Shown piece by piece: positions 45,073 through 59,804 of a stretch of DNA of 64,000 bases. A program made the translations under genes and the position numbers. Under the pieces are notes generated by a model, which saw only the letters and a program-made list of their open reading frames with translations, was not told the DNA's origin and searched no databases. The DNA is from Mustelus asterias (Eukaryota). The stretch is from the NCBI RefSeq assembly GCF_964213995.1, contig NW_027590123.1:806001-870000 (forward strand), written 5' to 3'. Numbering within the stretch: position 1 is the first letter of the stretch; each line of letters starts with the position of its first letter.

Positions 45073-45464
45073 TCATTGACATGAATTAACGGTGTCCATC
45101 AGAGCAAGGGAAATGTTCACAAAACTGGGTTTACCGCTGGATTTGTCAACTGTTCTGTTGATGATCTTCAAGGGGATGGCTTCATGTCCCACCACACAGG
45201 AGTAAGAAGCGCCGCTGGACCACTCCTCTGCTGCAATGGATAACAGGCTGTACATGAAGAAGGAGCTATTCCCGCTCTCCGCGACCACCTCGGTGTTCCT
45301 GTAGTTCCCAGGATTCACCGGCTTGTCGTTGACGGTCCACTTGACGAAGATCTCTCGAGGGGAGAAACGTCTCACTAAGCAACTGAGGGAGACGAATCTC
45401 TGAGCGGAGACTTCTTCTGCCGAGGGCAAGAGGACAGAGACGAACGGTTCCCGCGGATTTGGAT
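45073..45464 (-). CDS. IGHM: IgM CH4 plus secretory tailpiece ([20 protein letters not shown]); internal donor after 45135 for the membrane form
   Basis: C1-set domain; tailpiece with NIS sequon and penultimate Cys; internal G|GTAAAC donor; AATAAA at 45040-45045 and 45031-45036. Confidence 0.97.
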
Positions 45465-45961: not shown

Positions 45962-46270
45962 CTGTTTCCTTGTGGATGGATTTTCTTAAAGGAGTCGGCA
46001 GATCCTGATGGCTCACCACGCAGTGAAACACAGCCGCACTCAGCCAGGCTTGTGTCGAGATGTTTAAGTTGCTGACCACGCTGTCAGGATCGGCTCCTGG
46101 CTTTTCGGCAATCTCTGATTTCAAATACTTCCTGTCTCGGATCCAGGACACATTGACTCCATAAGGAGCATGAGAAATGATGCAGGTTAAGGTCACGGTA
46201 GCCTCCAGTAAGACCTGTTCTATTGGTGGTGGCTGTATGGTCACTGTGGAATCATGGCACTGGCAAGGAC
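45962..46270 (-). CDS. IGHM: IgM CH3 exon
   Basis: [45 protein letters not shown]; 309 nt, phase 1-1. Confidence 0.95.
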
Positions 46271-47005: not shown

Positions 47006-47188
47006 ATCTCATGAAGGAATAACAAAAATTGCTGTTGTGATGAAATTCTGAATGGGGCACTGTCTTAATGCAGCAAACCACATGGCAGCAAATTCGAAGT
47101 TGTTCTGTGCTTTGTACTAACTTTAATAGACCCCTAATTCCGATTAACATCGGAATGGTATATTTTATCCTCGGTTTGAGTCTCTTAC

Positions 47189-47500
47189 CCAGAGATCCGC
47201 TGATGTTCTGACTCTGAGTGAATCCTTGATGAGTGACCTGGCAGGTATAGACCGCTTTGCTGATCCATTCCTGAGCGGAGACTGTCAGCCGACTGCTGGC
47301 CGAGAAGTTCCTGTTCACTTCATAGGCGGGAGAGGTGATAATTCCTGAATCCATGGGTTGTCCATTCTTCAGCCACTTCACCGTCATTGACTTTGGCTGG
47401 AAATCGATGATTGAACAGACGATGGTTGCAAATTTTCTGCTGGTGATTTCTTCACTGGAACTCACGGTGAGGATAACGGTTGGGGTGATAACGATTGGGC
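47189..47500 (-). CDS. IGHM: IgM CH2 exon
   Basis: C1-set domain [38 protein letters not shown]; 312 nt, AG/GT, phase 1-1. Confidence 0.95.
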
Positions 47501-47599
47501 CTTCAACAAACAAATGTTCAGACGTTACTTGAAGATTCCATTGACATCAATTAAAATTAGTTCTTTTATATGAGCAAAATAGCTGCCGATTTGAGAATT

Positions 47600-48330
47600 A
47601 TATCCATGGTTTGGTTGAATTGGCAGGGAAATGGCGAATGGAATTCAACCGTCAAAAGTGCCACACAATGCATTTGGGGAGGGAAAGCAAAGCAAGGCAA
47701 TAAACTGGAATGTTAAGAGGGATTGAGGAAATGCAAGACCTTAGAGAGCACGTCCACATGTCCTTATAGATGGTAGGGCAGCTGGACAAGTTGATCAAGA
47801 AAGCATATCGGATTAGTTCCTCTATTATGTGAGATATTGAATGCAAAAACAGTGATGCAATGATGGAGCTGCATAAAACCCAGTTAGGCCACGTTTGGAG
47901 TTTGCTGTTCAGTTCTGGTCACCACGTTGCAGGAATGACGTAATGAATCTGGAGAGAGATGAGGTTAACAAGAATGTTGTCAGGGCCTGAAAATTGCAGC
48001 CATGAGGCGAGATTGGATAGGCAGGGGTTTTTCTCCTCAGAAAAAGAGGAGGCTGAGGCGTGACGTAATTGTGGTTCACAAAATTAGAAGGGACGTAGGC
48101 AGAAATAATTCATTCCCCAAGTGGAGGGCTCAATTACCAGGGAGCATGGTCATTTAAAAGGTCATTACGTCTGCATCTCAGGTGCTTTAACCTGCAATGC
48201 TACGGCGCAAGGGCTGGAAAATGGGCTCAAAATGTCTGGCTAGTTTATTTGTTCTCCCTTTTGGCCAGCACAGACGTGATGGGCTCAATGGCCTCATTCT
48301 GCACAGTAACAGTCCTGTTGTTCTTTGGTT
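47600..48330 (+). mobile_element. Old CR1 fragment in the CH1-CH2 intron
   Basis: Degenerate WQMEFN..RPRLEFAVQFWSP motifs and 3' UTR. Confidence 0.75.
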
Positions 48331-48473
48331 CTGAACAACTTTTCAGTCAGTAGACACTTACCTGGATTTTGAATAATTCATTTTTTTTCAGAATGCTACA
48401 GATCAGTTATAACTAAAGCCTTATACAGTTCAATCACAGCGTTCCTGTCTTGCCCAAGTTCCACAACACTTAC

Positions 48474-48773
48474 ATTGCATTTCAATGCTCTTGACGGAGT
48501 CGCTGTGTCGAACCTCACAGTCGATTTTGCTGCACTCTCCCTCTGACTGGGTGATGGTTAACTGGCTGCTCAGGGTATAGGTTCCCTTCGTGTTTCTCAC
48601 TGATGGATAAGTCTTAAATCCAGTGGCGATCAGCTGCCCATTTTTCTTCCAGGTCAGTTTGGAGACATCTGGAGAGTAGTCCATCGCCAAACAGCCGTAG
48701 GTGATGGAGCCAGCGGAGTTGTGTTGCTGACAGGAAGAGACGAGGCTGTAGAGAGTGGGCGGAGACGGTGTCG
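48474..48773 (-). CDS. IGHM: IgM CH1 exon
   Basis: ttctttcccag|CG; [42 protein letters not shown]; 300 nt, phase 1-1; carries the extra N-terminal Cys expected for light-chain linkage. Confidence 0.95.
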
Positions 48774-49299
48774 CTGGGAAAGAATAGTCGATTCAACAAG
48801 TTAGACTCTTACTTGCGTTTATTAATTAGTCAAACATATTTATACAAGTAAGTTTCTATATTAGGTATAGCTCTTGGGGCTAAAGGGATCAATGGATATG
48901 GGTAGTAGACGGGGTCAGGATATTGATGAGCTGTGATCAAAGTGAATGGTAGAGCAGGGTCAAAGGGCCGAATGGCTTACTCCTGCTTCTATTTTCTATG
49001 TTTCTACATCACGATTTGTCTAGAATTATGAACTTAACTTAATATTTCCCGATTAAGACCTACATACACCTTTCAGCTTCTGTTACTCCTATCATTTGAG
49101 AATCGCCATCTTTGTAGAAACTCACATCAATGTCTCGACCTCTATCAGATTGGAAAGACAAAAACATTTTGATGTCATTGTAATGACATACCATTCATTA
49201 GATTAACAGAAAAGTGTAAAGAGTTTCTCCATTACTTCAGGCACTAGCTATTTCTCAAACAACAGCACTTTGTGATGAAGAAGATGTCTCTTCATTCAT

Positions 49300-49427
49300 A
49301 TCAGCCACTCGCCTGATGAAAGAGCTCCAAAAGCTCACGATTCCAAATAATCCTGTTGGAGTTCAACCTGGTGTTGTGAGACTCCTTACTGTGCCCACCC
49401 CAACCTAGCGTCGGCATATCCACATTG
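49300..49427 (+). mobile_element. Penelope pLTR fragment with degenerate hammerhead core
   Basis: CTGATGA..AAAAGCTC..CCAAATAATCCTGTTGGAGTTCAACCTGGTGTTGTGAG. Confidence 0.7.
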
Positions 49428-49744
49428 TAGCTTTGGCTATTGCCTGTGTTCAAACTAACTGATGCCCCTTCCTCTCTCCGACTCACTGCCTCTCACTCCA
49501 CAAAACGAAGATTAGTGACTTTGCTTCAAAAATACCTTCGGAATGAATACTTACTGAATGACCAGGAAACTCTCAATGTGATTACAAATTCAAATAGTTG
49601 CAACATTGACTAATTGAAGGGCCATACATTAATAGCAAGAGTTGGCCATTCGGGCCCTGAAGTCTCCTCCATTATTCACTGAGATTACAGATGATCTGGT
49701 TGTGGTGCTAGCTCTATTTTGCACATCCTCACTCCGCCCGTCGA

Positions 49745-50400
49745 TCACCCACTCTCTGCCCATTTTCCCCGACTCTCTGCGCTTTCCCCTGGCTCTCTGC
49801 TATTCTCTGTGGCTCCTTTCCCCTTTCACCCGGCTCTCCGCACTTCCACCTGGCTCTCTACACTTCCCTCCAGCTCTGTCCCCTCTCCCCCGGCTCCCTG
49901 CCCTTTCCCTCAGCTCCCTACCCTTTCCCCCGGCTCTTTGCCCGGTGTCCCTGCTCCCTATCCACTTTCCCCTTCCCCCTGGCTCTCTGCCCTTTCCCCC
50001 TGACTCTCTGCCTTTCCCCTTGACTCTCTACCCTTTCCTCTGGGCTATCTTGTCCTTTTCCTCGGCTCTCTGTCCTTTCCCCGGCCTCCCTGCCCTTTAT
50101 CCTGGCTCTCTCCTCTTTCCCTGGTTCTCTGCCCTTTCACCTGGCTCCCTGCCCTTTCTATTAGCTCTCTGCCCTTTCTTCTGGCTCTCTGCGCTTTCTC
50201 CTGACTCTCTGCCCTTTCCCGGCTCTCAGCCCTGTTGCCCGGCTGTGGGCCCATTCCCCAGGCTCTCTGCCCTCCCCCCCCCCCCCCCCCCCGGCTCTCT
50301 GCCCTTTAGCACGCCTCCTGTTCTCCCCGGCTCTTTCCCATTGTCCTTGGTCCTGAGCCCCCAGGGATTCCCCCCAGCTCTCCACATTCGCAGGGCAGCT
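49745..50400. repeat. ~20-bp tandem array (plus strand GGCTCTCTGCCCTTTCCCCT), about 30 units
   Basis: Direct inspection; strongly pyrimidine on plus, G/purine-rich on the Ig sense strand. Confidence 0.9.
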
Positions 50401-50469: not shown

Positions 50470-51910
50470 TTTAGCGAGTGTGAGTGAGAGAATGTGAGTG
50501 CGTGCGGGTGAGTGATTGAAGGAGTGAGAGTGGATGAGTGATGGTGTGTGAGTGACGGAAGGTGGGTAAGTGAGGGTGAGTGAGTGAAGTTCTTTCAGTG
50601 AGGATGAGTGATTGAGGGTGAGTGAGTGAGTGTGGGTGAGGGTGAGAGAGCATGAGTAAATGATGGTGTGTGAGAGAGGGTGGGTGAGTGAAGGTAGCTT
50701 AATGTGTGAGTGAAGGTGGGTGAGTGAGTGTCGGTAAGAGAGAATGAATGAGGGTGAGTGAGTGAGGATGCGTGAAGGTTAGTGAAGGTGGGTGAGTGAG
50801 AGCGAGTGAATGAGGGTGAGGAGTGAATGTGACTTAGTAAGTGAGGGTGAGAGAGTGAGTGAGTCAGGGTGTGTTATTGAGGGTGGTGTGTGAGAGTGTG
50901 TGAGGGAGAATGAATGCGGATGGGTGGATGAGTGCAGGTGAGTGAGTAAAGGTGTTTGACTGAGGATGAGTGATTGAGGATCTGTGAGTTAGGGTGGGTG
51001 AACGTGAGTGATGGTGAATATGTGAGGGTGTGTGAGTGAATGTAGGTGCGTGAGTCTCAGTGAGTTTGAATGGGTCAGGTGGCGTATGTGAGAGAGAGAG
51101 GGTAATTGAGCTTGAGTGTGTGGGGGTGCGTCTGGGTGAGTGAGGGTGGGTAAGTGGGGAGAGGGTGAGTGAGTGAGGGTGAGTGAGAGTGATTGAGACT
51201 GGATGAGTGAGGGAGGGTAAGTGCGGTGAGTGAGAGTGATTGAGACTGGATGAGTGAAGGTGGGTAAGTGGACTGAGTGAGTGAGAGTGAGTGAGACTGG
51301 GTGAGTGAGGGCGGGTTAGTGGGATGAGTGAACGAAGGTGACTATGAGTGTTGGTGAGTGACTGAGGCTCTGAGTGAGTGACTGAGGGTTAGTGAGTGAG
51401 GTTGAGTGAGTGATAGCGTGTGAGTGTGGGTGACTGAGTGACAGTGAGTGAATGAGGGTGTGTGAGGGCGAGTGAGTGAGTGAGTGCTGGTGAGTGAATG
51501 AGGGTGTGAATGTGAGTGAATGAGGGTGAGTGAGTGAGGATGGGTGAGAGTGAGAGAGCGAATGTGTGTGAGTGATTTTGAGTGAGTGAGGGTGTGAGGG
51601 TGAGTGACTCAGGGTGAATGAGGATCAGTGAGTTTCTGAGGTTGAGTGCGTGAAATTGAGTGTGTGAAGTTGAGTGTGTGAGGTTGAGTGCGTGAAATTG
51701 AGTGTGTGAGGGTGGATGAGTGAGCAAGGGTGAGTGAGTTGGGATGAGTGAGTTGGGATGAGTGAGTTGGGATTTGTGAGTGGGGATGAATGAGTGAGAG
51801 TGTGTCAGCGAGGGAAGGTGGGTAAGTGAGGGTGAGTGAGTCAAGTTCTTTGAGTGAGGATGAGAGATTGAGGGTGAGTGAGGAAGTGTGGGTGAGGGTG
51901 AGAGAGTCAG
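50470..51910. repeat. (GAGT/GAGGGT)n degenerate satellite
   Basis: Direct inspection. Confidence 0.92.
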
Positions 51911-52822: not shown

Positions 52823-52993
52823 NNNNNNNNNNNNNNNNNNNNNNNNNNNNNNNNNNNNNNNNNNNNNNNNNNNNNNNNNNNNNNNNNNNNNNNNNNNNNN
52901 NNNNNNNNNNNNNNNNNNNNNNNNNNNNNNNNNNNNNNNNNNNNNNNNNNNNNNNNNNNNNNNNNNNNNNNNNNNNNNNNNNNNNNNNNNNNN
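52823..52993. other. Assembly gap (N run)
   Basis: Run of N; the true J-C intron length is uncertain. Confidence 1.
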
Positions 52994-54940
52994 TGATAGA
53001 ATGCGTTTGCACGTGTGTGAGACAGTGGACTGTGCGTGCAAGAGGAGAGAGTGTGCGTGAGAGAAAGGATGTGTGAGATAATGTGTGTGTGTGAGACAGA
53101 ATGTGTGTTTGAAGAGTTATTCTTTGTGTGTGACAGTGTGTCTCTTCTTGAAAATGTATGTGTGTGGAGGGGCGGGGAGAGTGTGTGTGGGGAGTCTGTG
53201 TGAAAGAGTACTTCTGTGTGTGAGTGTGTGTATGTTGATGTGAAAAGGAGTGTATCTATTTGAGATACACGATGTCTGTGAAAGAGAGTGTGTGTGCTTG
53301 AGGGAGGGTGTGTGTGTGGGAGAGTGTTGTGTTCATGTGAAAGACAGTGTGTGTGAGAGGGAGTGCCTATTGGAAAGCAAAATAATATGTTCATCAGTGT
53401 GTGAAACTGTGCATGGGATGGCGTGTGAGTGCGAAAGATGTGTACAATGTGTGTGGGAGATAGAAGCAATGTGGGGTGTTTGAGTGTATGTGTGTGTGTG
53501 TGTGGAGGGGCGGGGAGAGTGTGTGTGAGCGAGAAAAAGTGTGAAACTTAGACAGAATGGATGCGTGAGTGTGTGTGAGTGAAATGACTGTTGAGAGAAC
53601 ATGTGTCTGTGATAGGTGGAGTGTTTAAAGAGCGATACATTGTATATACATGTGTGTTCGAGTGTAAGAGAAGGAGAGACTGTGTGAGAGATTGTGTGCG
53701 TGTGAAAGAGAGGGTGTTTGTGAGAGACAGGGTTTGAGAGCAAGATTGTGCATGTGAGACAATGTGTAAGGGGGAGGGTCGGGATGGCGACCTCCTCGTG
53801 AACCTGCTCCTGGGCCTGGCGAAACGCGCCATTTACCGGTCCAGGCTGCGGGCGATCGAGGGGGCCGTCCATCCTGACTGTCTTCCCCTCTACCGCGGCT
53901 ACGGTCGCGGCCAGGTGTCCCTGGAGAGGGAGCATGCGGTGTCCACGGGCGAGGTTGACGCTTTCCGCGCCCGCTGGGCACCGCAGGGGTTGGGGTGCAT
54001 TATTGGCCCTAATAATCACATTTTAATTTGATGTTTTTAAGTTTCCTTTGTACTTTGATTTCTGTTCGGGCTGTTCCCCCTCCTTTTTGGGGAGCTGCCC
54101 CTTTTACTTTGTCCTGATTTAATCTGAGTTTGTTTACTTGGTTTGGTTTGACCTAAAAAGAGGACAATGTGTAAGGGAGTGAGCGTGTGAAATAGAGAGA
54201 AATATGTGCCTGTGTGAGAGAATACATGTGCAAGTGTTCGTATGAGTGAGAGAGGGCATCGGAATGTGTGTGAGACGAAGTGAGAGTGTACGGAAGAGGG
54301 AATGTGAGAGGCATAGTGCATGTGTGTGTGAGAGAGCGAATGTGTGCGCGAGACTGTGCTTATGGGAGAGACTGTGTCTGTGTGTAAGAGTGTGTGTTAG
54401 AGTGTGTGCATGTTCTATGTTTGTGAGAGAGTGATTGTGAGAGAGCCAGTGTGTGAGAGCAAGAATGTAGAGGTGTGAGATAGTGTGCGCAAGAGAAATA
54501 GAAATATGTGCGTGTGTGTGTGTGTGAGAGAGAAAGAGATGCGTGTGCGAGAGGAATTGTGAGAGAGCGTGTGGAGAAATGTGAGACAGCTTGAGCGTGT
54601 GTGACAGAGAGTGGGAGAGAGTCCATGTGAGAGTGCGTGCGCGAGAGTGTGAGACTGTGCTGATGTGAGAGTGTGTGTCTGTGTATAAGAGAAAATGGGT
54701 GGGTGTGTGGGGATGTGAGCGCTTTTGTGGATGGGGATGTGAGAGATTGATGGAGAGAGCGAGACGATGTATGTATTTGTATTGAGAGAGTGTATGTGTA
54801 ACGTGAGAGAGAGAATGTGTATGGGTGTGTAAGAGAGACCGTATGAGAGAGAAAGTAAGTGTGAGTATGTATGTGTGTGTGTGTGCATGTGTGAGAGAAT
54901 ATGAGAGTATTTATGTGTGTGAGAGTGTGTGATGTGTATA
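52994..54940. repeat. Degenerate (GT/GA)n tract
   Basis: Direct inspection. Confidence 0.9.
53773..54162 (+). mobile_element. 5'-truncated Tx1-like non-LTR retrotransposon with 15-bp TSD
   Basis: GC/CpG-rich; LLVNLLLGLAKRAIYRSR..FRARW C-terminus; GACAATGTGTAAGGG at 53758-53772 and 54163-54177. Confidence 0.8.
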
Positions 54941-55560: not shown

Positions 55561-58500
55561 CTAAAATGGGTTTAGAAGATTAAAAATAAGATGCAAATGA
55601 ATTTGACCCTTCAACTGTCATACCAAACAGGTCATGGACTGCTTTACTACGGAGCACAATATAGTAAATCTCACTTTGCATTTGCTCATCGAACATTCCC
55701 AAGGCCGGTACATCACTGGTTAAAAATCATCCAAATCTCCCTCTACAATCTGACGTTTCTGCTCTCTCTGATGGTCACAATATGCTTTAGGGATCTCATT
55801 TCTGAGACGCCGAGCCAAACATCAAGTCAAACTGTCACATTTCTCACAGATACAAGTTTATTGAAGAAATAAATCAAATTTCACTCCCTGAAATACAGCA
55901 GAAGGAACCAGAAGTTTTACAACCAGTCAGGCAGATTCCTGGTCCCAACACAGTGACCACGCGCGCAGAAACAGAACAGACACAAACGGTGCAACAATCG
56001 ATTTCCCAGCAGATGGGTATGATCAATCTGTCAATTTAATTCAAACTGTTTGATTCTAATTGATCAATGATCAATTTGCAACAGAAAATCAATAACCTCT
56101 TTTAAATAAAACTGATATTCATTTCAAAACTCCTGTCGATTTTAAATTAAGTCTCTCTGTCTGTCTCACTTCTCGAAAACTATGTAAAAATGTAATTTCG
56201 CTGAAAATTAGGAATCAAAAATAACAGATTCAGGACAGTTCAATGTCCCCGACAGAGATACAGTGACACAGTAAGGATTAAATAAACCAATAAACATTTA
56301 CATTGAAAATCATTACCTGATTCGATCGAATTTCTTAATTAAATGTAATCAACAAAATATTCGAGATAAAACACCTTATCGAGCTAAGCATAGCTGATGA
56401 AAGAAAGGTTTTGTCTCTTAATTCATTTTCGATACAATTAAACATTCTCTGAAACGGATGATACTTTGCACGCCCGTGCATTATTCAAGGTATTTTGTTT
56501 TGAATTAATTAGCACCAATATTATATTTTGTTTTGTTAATTGCCGGTTACTTTTCCTGTTAGCTGATTTGTACTCCCTAATAAAATCAGTTTTCAATCAT
56601 TCAAAACTTTCCCTGCCTCGAACATTGTGAAGTAATTAGGTTCCAATTAAATCTTAAACAATAAACTTCAAATTACTGAATGGAAAAATTCAGACATCTG
56701 TAATTCATTTGCTTAAATCGAATAACATTGTCATGTTTTTTCATTTCCACTTTTACTCCAAATGCCTTATTATAACCTGCAAACGTGTTAAGAATGCATG
56801 TTTCTGAATTTGTATATACTGTAACGGCCTGGCAGTTTGAGGTCAATGAAGCTGCTTCCTAGATTTAATAATTTGGACCATCCATATAATTTAATTACTG
56901 AACATATTGTTTAAATTAAGAAGTTCTGAATTAAACAATGAAAAACACAATGAGGACAATTGATTCAAATCCTCTGCAACACTGAAACATGATGCACAAA
57001 ATAAGTCGAGACTTTTTCTTCAGTATAATATTTAATACTAATTAAACATAATGCTCAAATAGAATCAATTCTTCCATTCTGTCATTTATTCATCCAATAA
57101 TTCTATTCTATGTTCAGCAGTAATGGGAGACAGGATGTGATTATTAAATGCAGAGCAAATATTACTAATATAAAAATATTATAATATTATAAAAATTAAT
57201 TATTTGAATTTCAAGTATTAAATTGCAAATCTCTAGCCAGTTTCTGTTGACACCTTACGACAATTCAAACACCATTATATGAACAATTGTTTAGTGTTAG
57301 CGAATTCCACCTGTCAGAAAACTGTGTTCACTCTGTCACATTTATTTAAACTGCGGGATTCTAATTGATCAATTTTCAAACTACAACAAAAATCAATAAC
57401 TTCTTTTAAATTAAACTGATATTCATTTCAAAATTCCCTTCGACTTTTAACTATTTCTCCCTGTCTATCTCAAATTTCGAAAACTAGGCAAAAAAAATAT
57501 TTTTTTTCTGAAAATGAGCACATCAGATATAACAGATCCAGTGTAGTGTAATGTCCCTAACAGAGATACAGTGACGCCGTAAGAATTGTAATTCATGATT
57601 TACTTTAATCTGCAAGCATCAGTTAACATGAATAAAATGCTCAAATATATATTTGTTTTATTTTTTCCGATACCAGTTTGTTTTATCCTGACAAGGATGT
57701 TTAAACGCATTTTATTTTTTTCATTTAGCGAGACAAAGTGTAACCGCTCAGGATCACCGAGTTGAAACAATACAGAAACAATTGAGAAACACCAAACCAT
57801 TTCACAAATTTTGGGATGAGATTAGTGATTAATTACCTCTGCATCCAACTACAAATTACTTGGAAGGAATGCTGCGCCTGCACAGAAACAATGTAATAAT
57901 CGGGCACAAAAATTGCCAAATAGCGTTTTATTGCCAATTATTCTCCAAAACTCAGATTTAAGTGAATGCGAACTTCATCGGGGATATAACAATTAATGCA
58001 AAGTATCTTGTTGAACTGAGCGCTGCTGTGGAAACAGCATGTTATCATGGAAATAGTTTCTGGAATTATCACAAAATATTTCCAGCCGAGAAACCTTTCT
58101 GGTCATGTTAATTGTATGCAAAGCACAGCAGAACTATTAACGCCGATTAATGCGAAATGATATTAATGGAAAATAATCTTTTGTGAATATGTAGTTATGT
58201 TACCGATTAATAACAGTTTGATTTATATTAATTTTACTATCAAACTTGTTAACGAGAAGTTTCTTTTTGCAGCAACTACTTAGTGTCCGATTGAGCGTTG
58301 TAAGACATGATTTATTTTAATTTCTAAGTTAGTTAAAATTTATTAAAATGCTGTAATACCTTTATTTTATTTATTTCACAACCTGCTTATTTTCTCCCTA
58401 CAAGGATTTTCAAACTCATAGATTATTTGCATTTAACCAGAAAACGTGTAACCGCTCACTGCCACCGAGTTTAAACAATGCAGAAACACCAAAACATTTC

Positions 58501-59804
58501 ACACATTTTAAACATTCTTAGTGACCCAACAACAGAACCTCCTCAACAGAAACACACCAAAACACATCAATGAGGGAATGAATCCGTTTCACGGGGACGC
58601 AACTCAATTATCCATTCAACAAAATCAAAAATATGATTGCAAGGAAATCTCAATATTCAATCCGGCAAACCAGCTCGTCACCAAATATATGAATGATTGA
58701 ACTAAACAGAAATTTGGAATAAGAGCAATAGCATTGCGAGGAGGTGGAATATGTCCAACAAATTAAAATTGAAATTTTACCACATTCTATTCATATTGGG
58801 TCATATTTCAAACAGATTTCAAACATATTAAAATATTGGGTGGGTAAAAGCTGCAGCCGTCAGATGCCACCGAGGTTAAACATGGCATGTATCCCAAATT
58901 GTGAATGCTGTGGTAAACTATGTTTTGGACGAGTGGCATAAACCATGGTTTGGTTTAACCTGCAATTATCAGCTACGATTTAAAAAAATACAAATACAAT
59001 AAAGCCTGCCTGATTTCTGTCTGCAGGCACGCGTCAAGTAGTTTAAAACCCGCAGACTGTTTGTATTCAATCACAAAGTGTGTAACAGCTCAGTGTCACC
59101 GAGTGGAAACAATGCAGAATCTCCGAACCATTTCACAAATTTTACTTATTCAAAGTCACCCAGCCAGACAACCTCCTCACCAGAAACACGCAGCACTGAG
59201 GGACTGAACCCCGGTTCATGCAGAAGCAGCTCAATTCTACAAACAGTTGCAACAGAATCAAATTTCACATTGGCAGAAAATCTCAATTTAAAATCCAGCC
59301 AATCTGACCATCACCAAAGCAACTAATGATTAAAATAAGCACAACAATGAGATAACAAAACCAGATTGTGATTAAGCGGAACATGTTCGCAACATTAAAG
59401 TAGAAACTTTAACACATTTTGTTAATATTGGGTTAGATTTCAAACACTTGTGCAGTAGATGGTGCAACTCGCAGCCACTAGATGTCACCGAGATTAAACA
59501 TTGAAGAAACGCCGAACTGTTTAACAAAAGGAATGCATTTAAAGTAACCCAGCCACACAATGTCCTCAGCAGATAAACACCAAATCACAACAAGAGACTG
59601 AATCACTCAGTATCGCCTTTTGTCAATTAACAGTAGAATTCTATAACCCCCATTTTAAGCAGGATCACATGAAACATTGTAAAGATTTTCAGCACAGAAT
59701 CCACCAAACCACATTACATTGAACGAATGAATTAATAAAATCGAGAAAAAGTACAAAACAAAAACTCAAATAAAACACTGACTAAATAAATGCATGGTTC
59801 TTAC

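Follow-up and report, generated by a model that had tools for sequence, protein, structure and literature searches.

A degenerate G-rich minisatellite before Cmu1 in a houndshark IgM cluster: switch-like in predicted DNA structure, probably a passenger repeat

According to the available text of PMC4245955, mammalian switch regions have the motifs AGCT and GGGG in common, and a synthetic switch region functional in CH12F3 cells consists of nine 80-bp repeats with four AGCT each (36 AGCT in 720 bp, 46% G). The mouse S-gamma1 region is about 12 kb long, and switching in mice is partly restored by an artificial G-rich cassette of 1 kb (PMC5485518, available text). Thus, short length alone does not exclude activity. 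The accessible domain in the mouse is given as 4-5 kb from the I-mu promoter in the available part of PMC2212040. In the axolotl, the switch regions (S-mu, S-chi and S-upsilon) measure 12-15 kb and were detected by enrichment in AGCT (z over 4) or in RGYW/WGCW; S-mu is a 12-kb AGCT peak, and S-upsilon is rich in RGYW/WGCW without AGCT enrichment (PMC9911811, available text). The Xenopus switch regions are described as AT-rich in the accessible parts of reviews. As for sharks, the available portions of three reviews (PMC4279169, PMC8201067 and PMC4588147) state that switching takes place between clusters without switch regions, one of them adding without cryptic promoters, and report, from Zhu et al. 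2012 and Zhang et al. 2013, an inter-cluster isotype switching in the nurse shark whose targeting is unknown. The nurse shark locus concerned is a V-D-D-J-C IgM minilocus, the same kind of locus as the one analysed here.

We found that a single, complete V-D-D-J-C cluster lies on the minus strand of the window (the whole stretch of 64,000 nucleotides that was analysed); its recombination signals are proper, and its leader, VH, JH, four Cmu exons, secretory tail, TM1 and TM2 are all open (Table 1). The best two of 16 matches to the Cmu1 protein are a Mustelus asterias protein (98% identity) and Triakis scyllium IgM (90%); the sequence therefore marks the locus as an IgM cluster of the houndshark type, from a Mustelus-like animal. 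The Cmu4 exon (45,464-45,073, minus strand) reads RRFSPRE in an open frame; in C1-set domains a glycine is usually found just before the F of this stretch. C2H2 zinc-finger genes, built of 84-bp repeats and mixed with LINEs, form a cluster at positions 1-39,070 of the window that stops about 2.5 kb short of the IgM TM2 exon.

The 3' half of the J-C intron is pieced together from dead repeats and simple sequence. The J-proximal part (56,020-59,763) is AT-rich and made of old imperfect direct duplications, 62-79% identical, which take up about 2.2 of 4.3 kb; within it, a module around CTCGGTG recurs five times (59,492, 59,103, 58,874, 58,469 and 57,761), an octamer is present at 58,425, and WGCW reaches 20.5/kb over the first 2 kb, above the G-rich array described below. 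We regard this J-proximal part as a candidate for an enhancer or a zone accessible to AID. Also inside the intron, at 55,949 on the plus strand, there is an RSS-like site in the orientation of a JH signal, with a perfect heptamer, a 24-bp spacer and a nonamer with two mismatches.

Table 1. Coordinates of the IgM cluster, of the array and of the neighbouring repeats in the window
Feature	Position	Strand	Remarks
Leader exon	61,557-61,512	-	open
VH exon	61,379-61,075	-	open; 23-bp-spacer RSS
D segment	60,636-60,623	-	12/22 RSS
D segment	60,258-60,247	-	12/12 RSS
JH segment	59,805-59,852	-	23-bp-spacer RSS
J-C intron	59,804-48,774	-	~11.0 kb; contains a 171-N gap at 52,823-52,993
GTGA-type low-complexity tract	50,476-51,907	+	plus strand ~48% G, which makes the Ig template strand the G-rich one
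Three weak unit-like stretches	50,327-50,391	-	13-14/20 matches, in the chance range; hold one of the five AGCT of 49,745-50,400
Core minisatellite	49,748-50,310	-	20-bp unit with consensus GGGAAAGGGCAGAGAGCCAG, ~27 degenerate copies; Ig sense strand 48% G
G19 run inside the array	50,274-50,292	-	strongest G4Hunter signal within the array
Decayed LINE 3' tail	49,630-49,697	-	on the strand of the array, ~50 bp beyond its downstream end; nhmmer E 2.8e-6 (model derived from six other copies in the window)
Short retroposon of very high copy number (fragment)	49,343-49,425		some related contigs join across it
LINE 3' tail between Cmu1 and the array	48,860-49,006	+	some related contigs join across it
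Cmu1 exon	48,474-48,773	-	open
Cmu2 exon	47,189-47,500	-	open
Cmu3 exon	45,962-46,270	-	open
Cmu4 exon with secretory tail	45,073-45,464	-	open
TM1 exon	41,877-41,750	-	open
TM2 exon	41,609-41,601	-	open

The G-rich, strand-skewed minisatellites of vertebrates are degenerate head-to-tail arrays of 10-60 bp units, shorter than 1 kb, with a purine/pyrimidine bias and prone to form G4. The array in the J-C intron has all of these traits, and differs in sitting in a multi-copy Ig cluster, so that it recurs with the clusters; with a period of 20 and about 27 copies it falls within the definition of a minisatellite (head-to-tail unit of 10-60 bp, under a few kb). The first-pass annotation had reported about 30 copies of a G-rich ~20-mer roughly 1 kb before Cmu1, with the Ig sense strand as the G-rich one, and our analysis agrees with it on each of these points. 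Tandem Repeats Finder gave a period of 20 at 49,752-50,273 (25.5 copies, 69% matches, score 319), and by segmentation 27 units were delimited in 49,748-50,310, followed by three weak ones (13-14/20) up to 50,391, with a mean identity to the consensus of 82%. The segmentation is lenient and, since it delimited 22-26 'units' also in five shuffles, the significance of the array rests on its lag-20 identity (0.60; none of 300 shuffles exceeded 0.43) and on the ungapped copies matching the unit at 16/20 or better (15, against at most one in 300 shuffles). The array is 563 bp long, 974 bp upstream of the Cmu1 start (48,773) and 9.5 kb downstream of JH; its sense strand is 48% G and 81% purine, and this G content is the highest among all the 570-bp windows of that strand in the 64 kb. 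When metagenome contigs were searched, a two-unit pattern of the array gave no match, and Cmu1 gave 160 pattern matches, none of which was confirmed as the locus. The J-C intron sequence is not treated in the available text of PMC2435157, PMC5192425 and PMC9936319, and no description of the array was found in the literature searched, which left out the primary papers on shark switching.

The potential to form R-loops and G4, which had also been claimed for the array, was borne out as a prediction: our in-house G4Hunter and R-loop-zone scripts gave nine R-loop initiation motifs with elongation zones, together with G4Hunter peaks. The authors of PMC4245955, in the available text, do not endorse sequence-based R-loop predictors. 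The GTGA-type tract, which begins 165 bp upstream of the array, is longer (1.43 kb), about equally G-rich and of opposite polarity, and the predicted elongation zones reach 1,120 bp in it compared to 720 bp in the array. TG-rich tracts at 43.3-43.8 kb (in the Cmu4-TM intron) and at 53.0-54.8 kb have the polarity of the GTGA tract, and among the four skewed tracts the array alone has the polarity of a switch region. An inverted 12-kb S-gamma1 switches poorly (PMC5485518, available text). Within the TG tracts of the two introns we observed three copies of a TG-flanked G-rich motif on the plus strand (43,306, 53,153 and 53,490), hinting at a shared low-complexity element. The second of these tracts also encloses a short open frame (53,738-54,028, plus strand), which we take to resemble the end of a LINE ORF2.

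The likeness to mammalian S-mu and other switch regions lies in the place of the array between JH and the first C exon, in its tandem repetition and in the G-clusters of a G-rich non-template strand, the G content being 48% compared to 46% in the working synthetic region; with the amphibian switch regions it has in common the place before a C gene and motifs of the RGYW type. In contrast, mammalian switch regions extend over several kb and the axolotl ones over 12-15 kb, with enrichment in AGCT or RGYW/WGCW, whereas the array measures 0.56 kb, although synthetic regions of 0.7-1 kb work, and shows no enrichment in AGCT or WGCW. It contains AGCT at 5/kb, about tenfold less than the synthetic region (50/kb), has no GGGGT and no known I promoter, and lies far from JH. 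As the array fails in length and in the enrichment of overlapping AID hotspots (AGCT, WGCW), we do not class it as a switch region; predicted DNA structure is the only respect in which it would work like one.

That most units carry AGCC/GGCT or AGCT, as the first-pass annotation had put it, is correct, AGCC or AGCT being present in 21 of the 30 units, but the motif is mostly AGCC (17 occurrences, against five AGCT, in 49,745-50,400), AGCT is rare (three in the core), and GGCT is merely the complement of AGCC. The unit also contains GGCA, an RGYW, which had been overlooked, as had the G19 run. In the consensus, GGCA and AGCC are 8 bp apart on opposite strands, giving one classical hotspot per strand, and both are present in 2.8% of shuffled units; among composition-matched real 20-mers elsewhere in the window (n = 1,462), 72% have WRCY or RGYW and 13% have both. 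AGCC is a one-direction WRCH hotspot and, when the two were compared at one V-region position in human Ramos cells, acquired fewer mutations than AGCT (PMC12864871, available text).

We compared the motif counts of the core with those of 112 equal-sized, non-overlapping windows. AGCT (three, 5.3/kb) was equalled or exceeded in 31 of them, WGCW (five, 8.9/kb, against 14.7/kb in the intron) in 104, and WRCH+DGYW (45, against a median of 52) in 84. Classical WRCY+RGYW was high, its count of 41 being reached by 4 of the 112 windows and by none of the 15 from the upstream intron. The five AGCT of 49,745-50,400 gave p ~0.05 against 1,000 dinucleotide shuffles, and four of them are followed by G, which is what CpG decay of the common variant AGCCG would yield. 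Because amplification of a single unit gave the array, its motif density counts as one observation. As to the retention of the motif, 22 of the 30 units still have the C of AGCC that AID would target, below the median column (25/30), although the A and G of AGCC are the best-retained columns (29/30).

Contigs from four of the 20 listed runs (X1, X5, X8 and X9; coded organisms A-D) were compared over 47,150-49,830, a stretch that includes the first 83 bp of the array only; none of the 20 listed runs contained half of the query words, and no RNA run was among those listed, which has no bearing on expression. All 30 bins of the stretch were covered in all four runs. The boundary between flank and array was bridged, with at least 31 letters on each side, by at least four pieces, found among the 32 listed, from three of the four runs (organisms A, C and D): one from X1 (record 8), ~90% identical, which continues past the end of the compared stretch, one from X8 (record 23), 95% identical, and two from organism D (X9, records 29 and 30), ~85% and ~80% identical, in which the match ends at 49,784, 36 bp into the array. 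Among the pieces listed for X5 none was bridging, and 12 X5 contigs have a variant at 49,781. The summed contig depth, which is not copy number and was used as an order-of-magnitude contrast only, was 1,402 (X1), 128 (X5), 754 (X9) and 18 (X8) in the array bin (first 70 bp), 1,133-1,661, 117-201, 979-1,590 and 21-66, respectively, in the Cmu1 bins, and up to 2,038,605 (X1) in the retroposon bins. The depth at the array edge is similar to that of Cmu1 and unlike that of the retroposons, so the edge seems to be tied to the IgM clusters rather than to a dispersed family, and the array is probably not private to this cluster. Absence from paralogous clusters and dispersed occurrence genome-wide, in either orientation, had been named in the first-pass annotation as two of three grounds for giving up its proposal. 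The former was not seen, as far as the Cmu1-proximal edge is concerned, which recurs in divergent contigs at ~80-95% identity; regarding the latter, there was no retroposon-like pile-up of contigs over the first 70 bp of the array, a result that bears on dispersal and does not cover orientation.

The bridging contigs also carry the decayed LINE tail and the unique flank; duplication of the whole cluster thus explains the sharing, and selection is not needed. Contig joints across 48,809-49,220 and 49,294-49,432 suggest that some copies of the cluster are without the two retroposon insertions. Moreover, two X1 contigs join 47,483 to 48,406 or 48,455, with ~0.9-1.0 kb unaligned, suggesting clusters with a shorter or different Cmu1-Cmu2 intron.

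Considering the observed structure and position of the array, its motif counts and the sharing of its proximal edge, we favour, with a probability of about 0.7, the reading that it is an old minisatellite, copied with whole clusters and probably prone to R-loops, and not a switch element. A purine-rich 20-mer is its likely source, amplified once through slippage or unequal exchange; the resulting array probably multiplied as whole IgM clusters were duplicated, and would now be decaying as a neutral passenger. Transcription from the VH promoter, as it crosses the array, could plausibly produce short R-loops or G4; with few two-strand hotspots and ~10 kb between it and that promoter, and no known promoter nearby, the array would be a weak focus for AID double-strand breaks. 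Some observations run counter to the passenger reading, namely the high WRCY+RGYW, the GGCA/AGCC pair, the A and G columns kept in 29 of 30 units, the top sense-strand G content of the 64 kb, the S-mu-like place and the recurring edge; further, the axolotl S-upsilon is rich in RGYW/WGCW without AGCT enrichment, and the 1-kb cassette gave partial rescue.

The first-pass annotation had proposed that the array could be a proto-switch element. In such a reading, R-loops or G4 would let AID deaminate the staggered GGCA/AGCC on both strands, and the breaks would join the matching array of another cluster, bringing VDJ to a different C region. We consider this improbable, and the AID-targeting step is where the proposal found no support. 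The S-mu-like place, the 48% sense G with G-clusters and predicted R-loop zones, WRCY+RGYW above all 15 upstream-intron windows, one hotspot per strand in the unit, the edge bridged in three of the four runs among the pieces listed, and a nurse shark switching of unknown targeting have to be set against an AGCT content about tenfold under that of a working synthetic region, WGCW under the background, WRCH+DGYW under the median, 0.56 kb compared to ~12 kb for mouse S-gamma1 and axolotl S-mu, the 9.5 kb to JH, an adjoining tract that is G-rich on the opposite strand, and the reviews cited above, whose available portions have shark switching without switch regions. The proposal would need an intronic promoter, a transcribed acceptor cluster and an enrichment of junctions. 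In the nurse shark, Zhu and Hsu are said to have found in 2010 that mutation affects VDJ and reaches no further than 2 kb into the J-C intron, a stop which also argues against the proposal. The wider claim, that the IgM clusters of houndsharks and their relatives have before Cmu1 an unrecognised switch region that does not depend on AGCT and focuses AID breaks by R-loop/G4 and staggered GGCA/AGCC, evolved independently or ancestral and in any case pre-tetrapod, is a long shot. The array is short and poor in two-strand AID motifs, and for this reason it is most likely a passenger repeat rather than an ancestral class-switch signal.

The passenger reading is compatible with an origin from the adjacent LINE, the array having grown from a G-rich segment just upstream of the LINE 3' tail, an origin that we regard as unlikely. 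A decayed LINE tail with the orientation of the array does lie ~50 bp from its end, and the LINE tails of the window have a G-rich purine stretch at the equivalent place; the decayed tail, which by blastn matches the tail of the RT element at 12.7-15.5 kb, is presumably CR1-like. However, the LINE model built without this copy matches 49,697-49,630 only and none of the array, and no unit at 16/20 or better was found elsewhere in the window, LINEs included. One organism-D contig, in addition, joins 49,550 to 49,769 with the tail unaligned, although other sequence may lie between the two points. An earlier LINE model that matched the array was discarded as circular, since the array was in its alignment, and the match was lost on rebuilding. 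Another regulatory role, as a polymerase pause site, a factor-binding array or a purine-rich splicing aid for the long J-C intron, would fit the purine-rich sense strand and an edge common to related contigs, but it is very unlikely: both octamer sites of the 39-64 kb region (55,591 and 58,425) are 5-8 kb off, the units are 18% diverged from the consensus, single-strand folding of the array revealed no unusual hairpin (z -0.33), and an Rfam search of the intron gave no matches. The chance of an assembly artefact, which the 171-N gap and the long low-complexity tracts nearby might have raised, is negligible, as the units differ among themselves and the passage from flank to array is spanned by contigs of three runs.

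The way in which sharks, without switch regions, move VDJ onto the C region of another cluster is an open question. If the array did focus breaks, switch-like DNA elements would date back to about 100 million years before the amphibians, and there would be a defined sequence to test. On present evidence the array is an ordinary repeat, at most a candidate for such an element and a marker of the duplication of IgM clusters.
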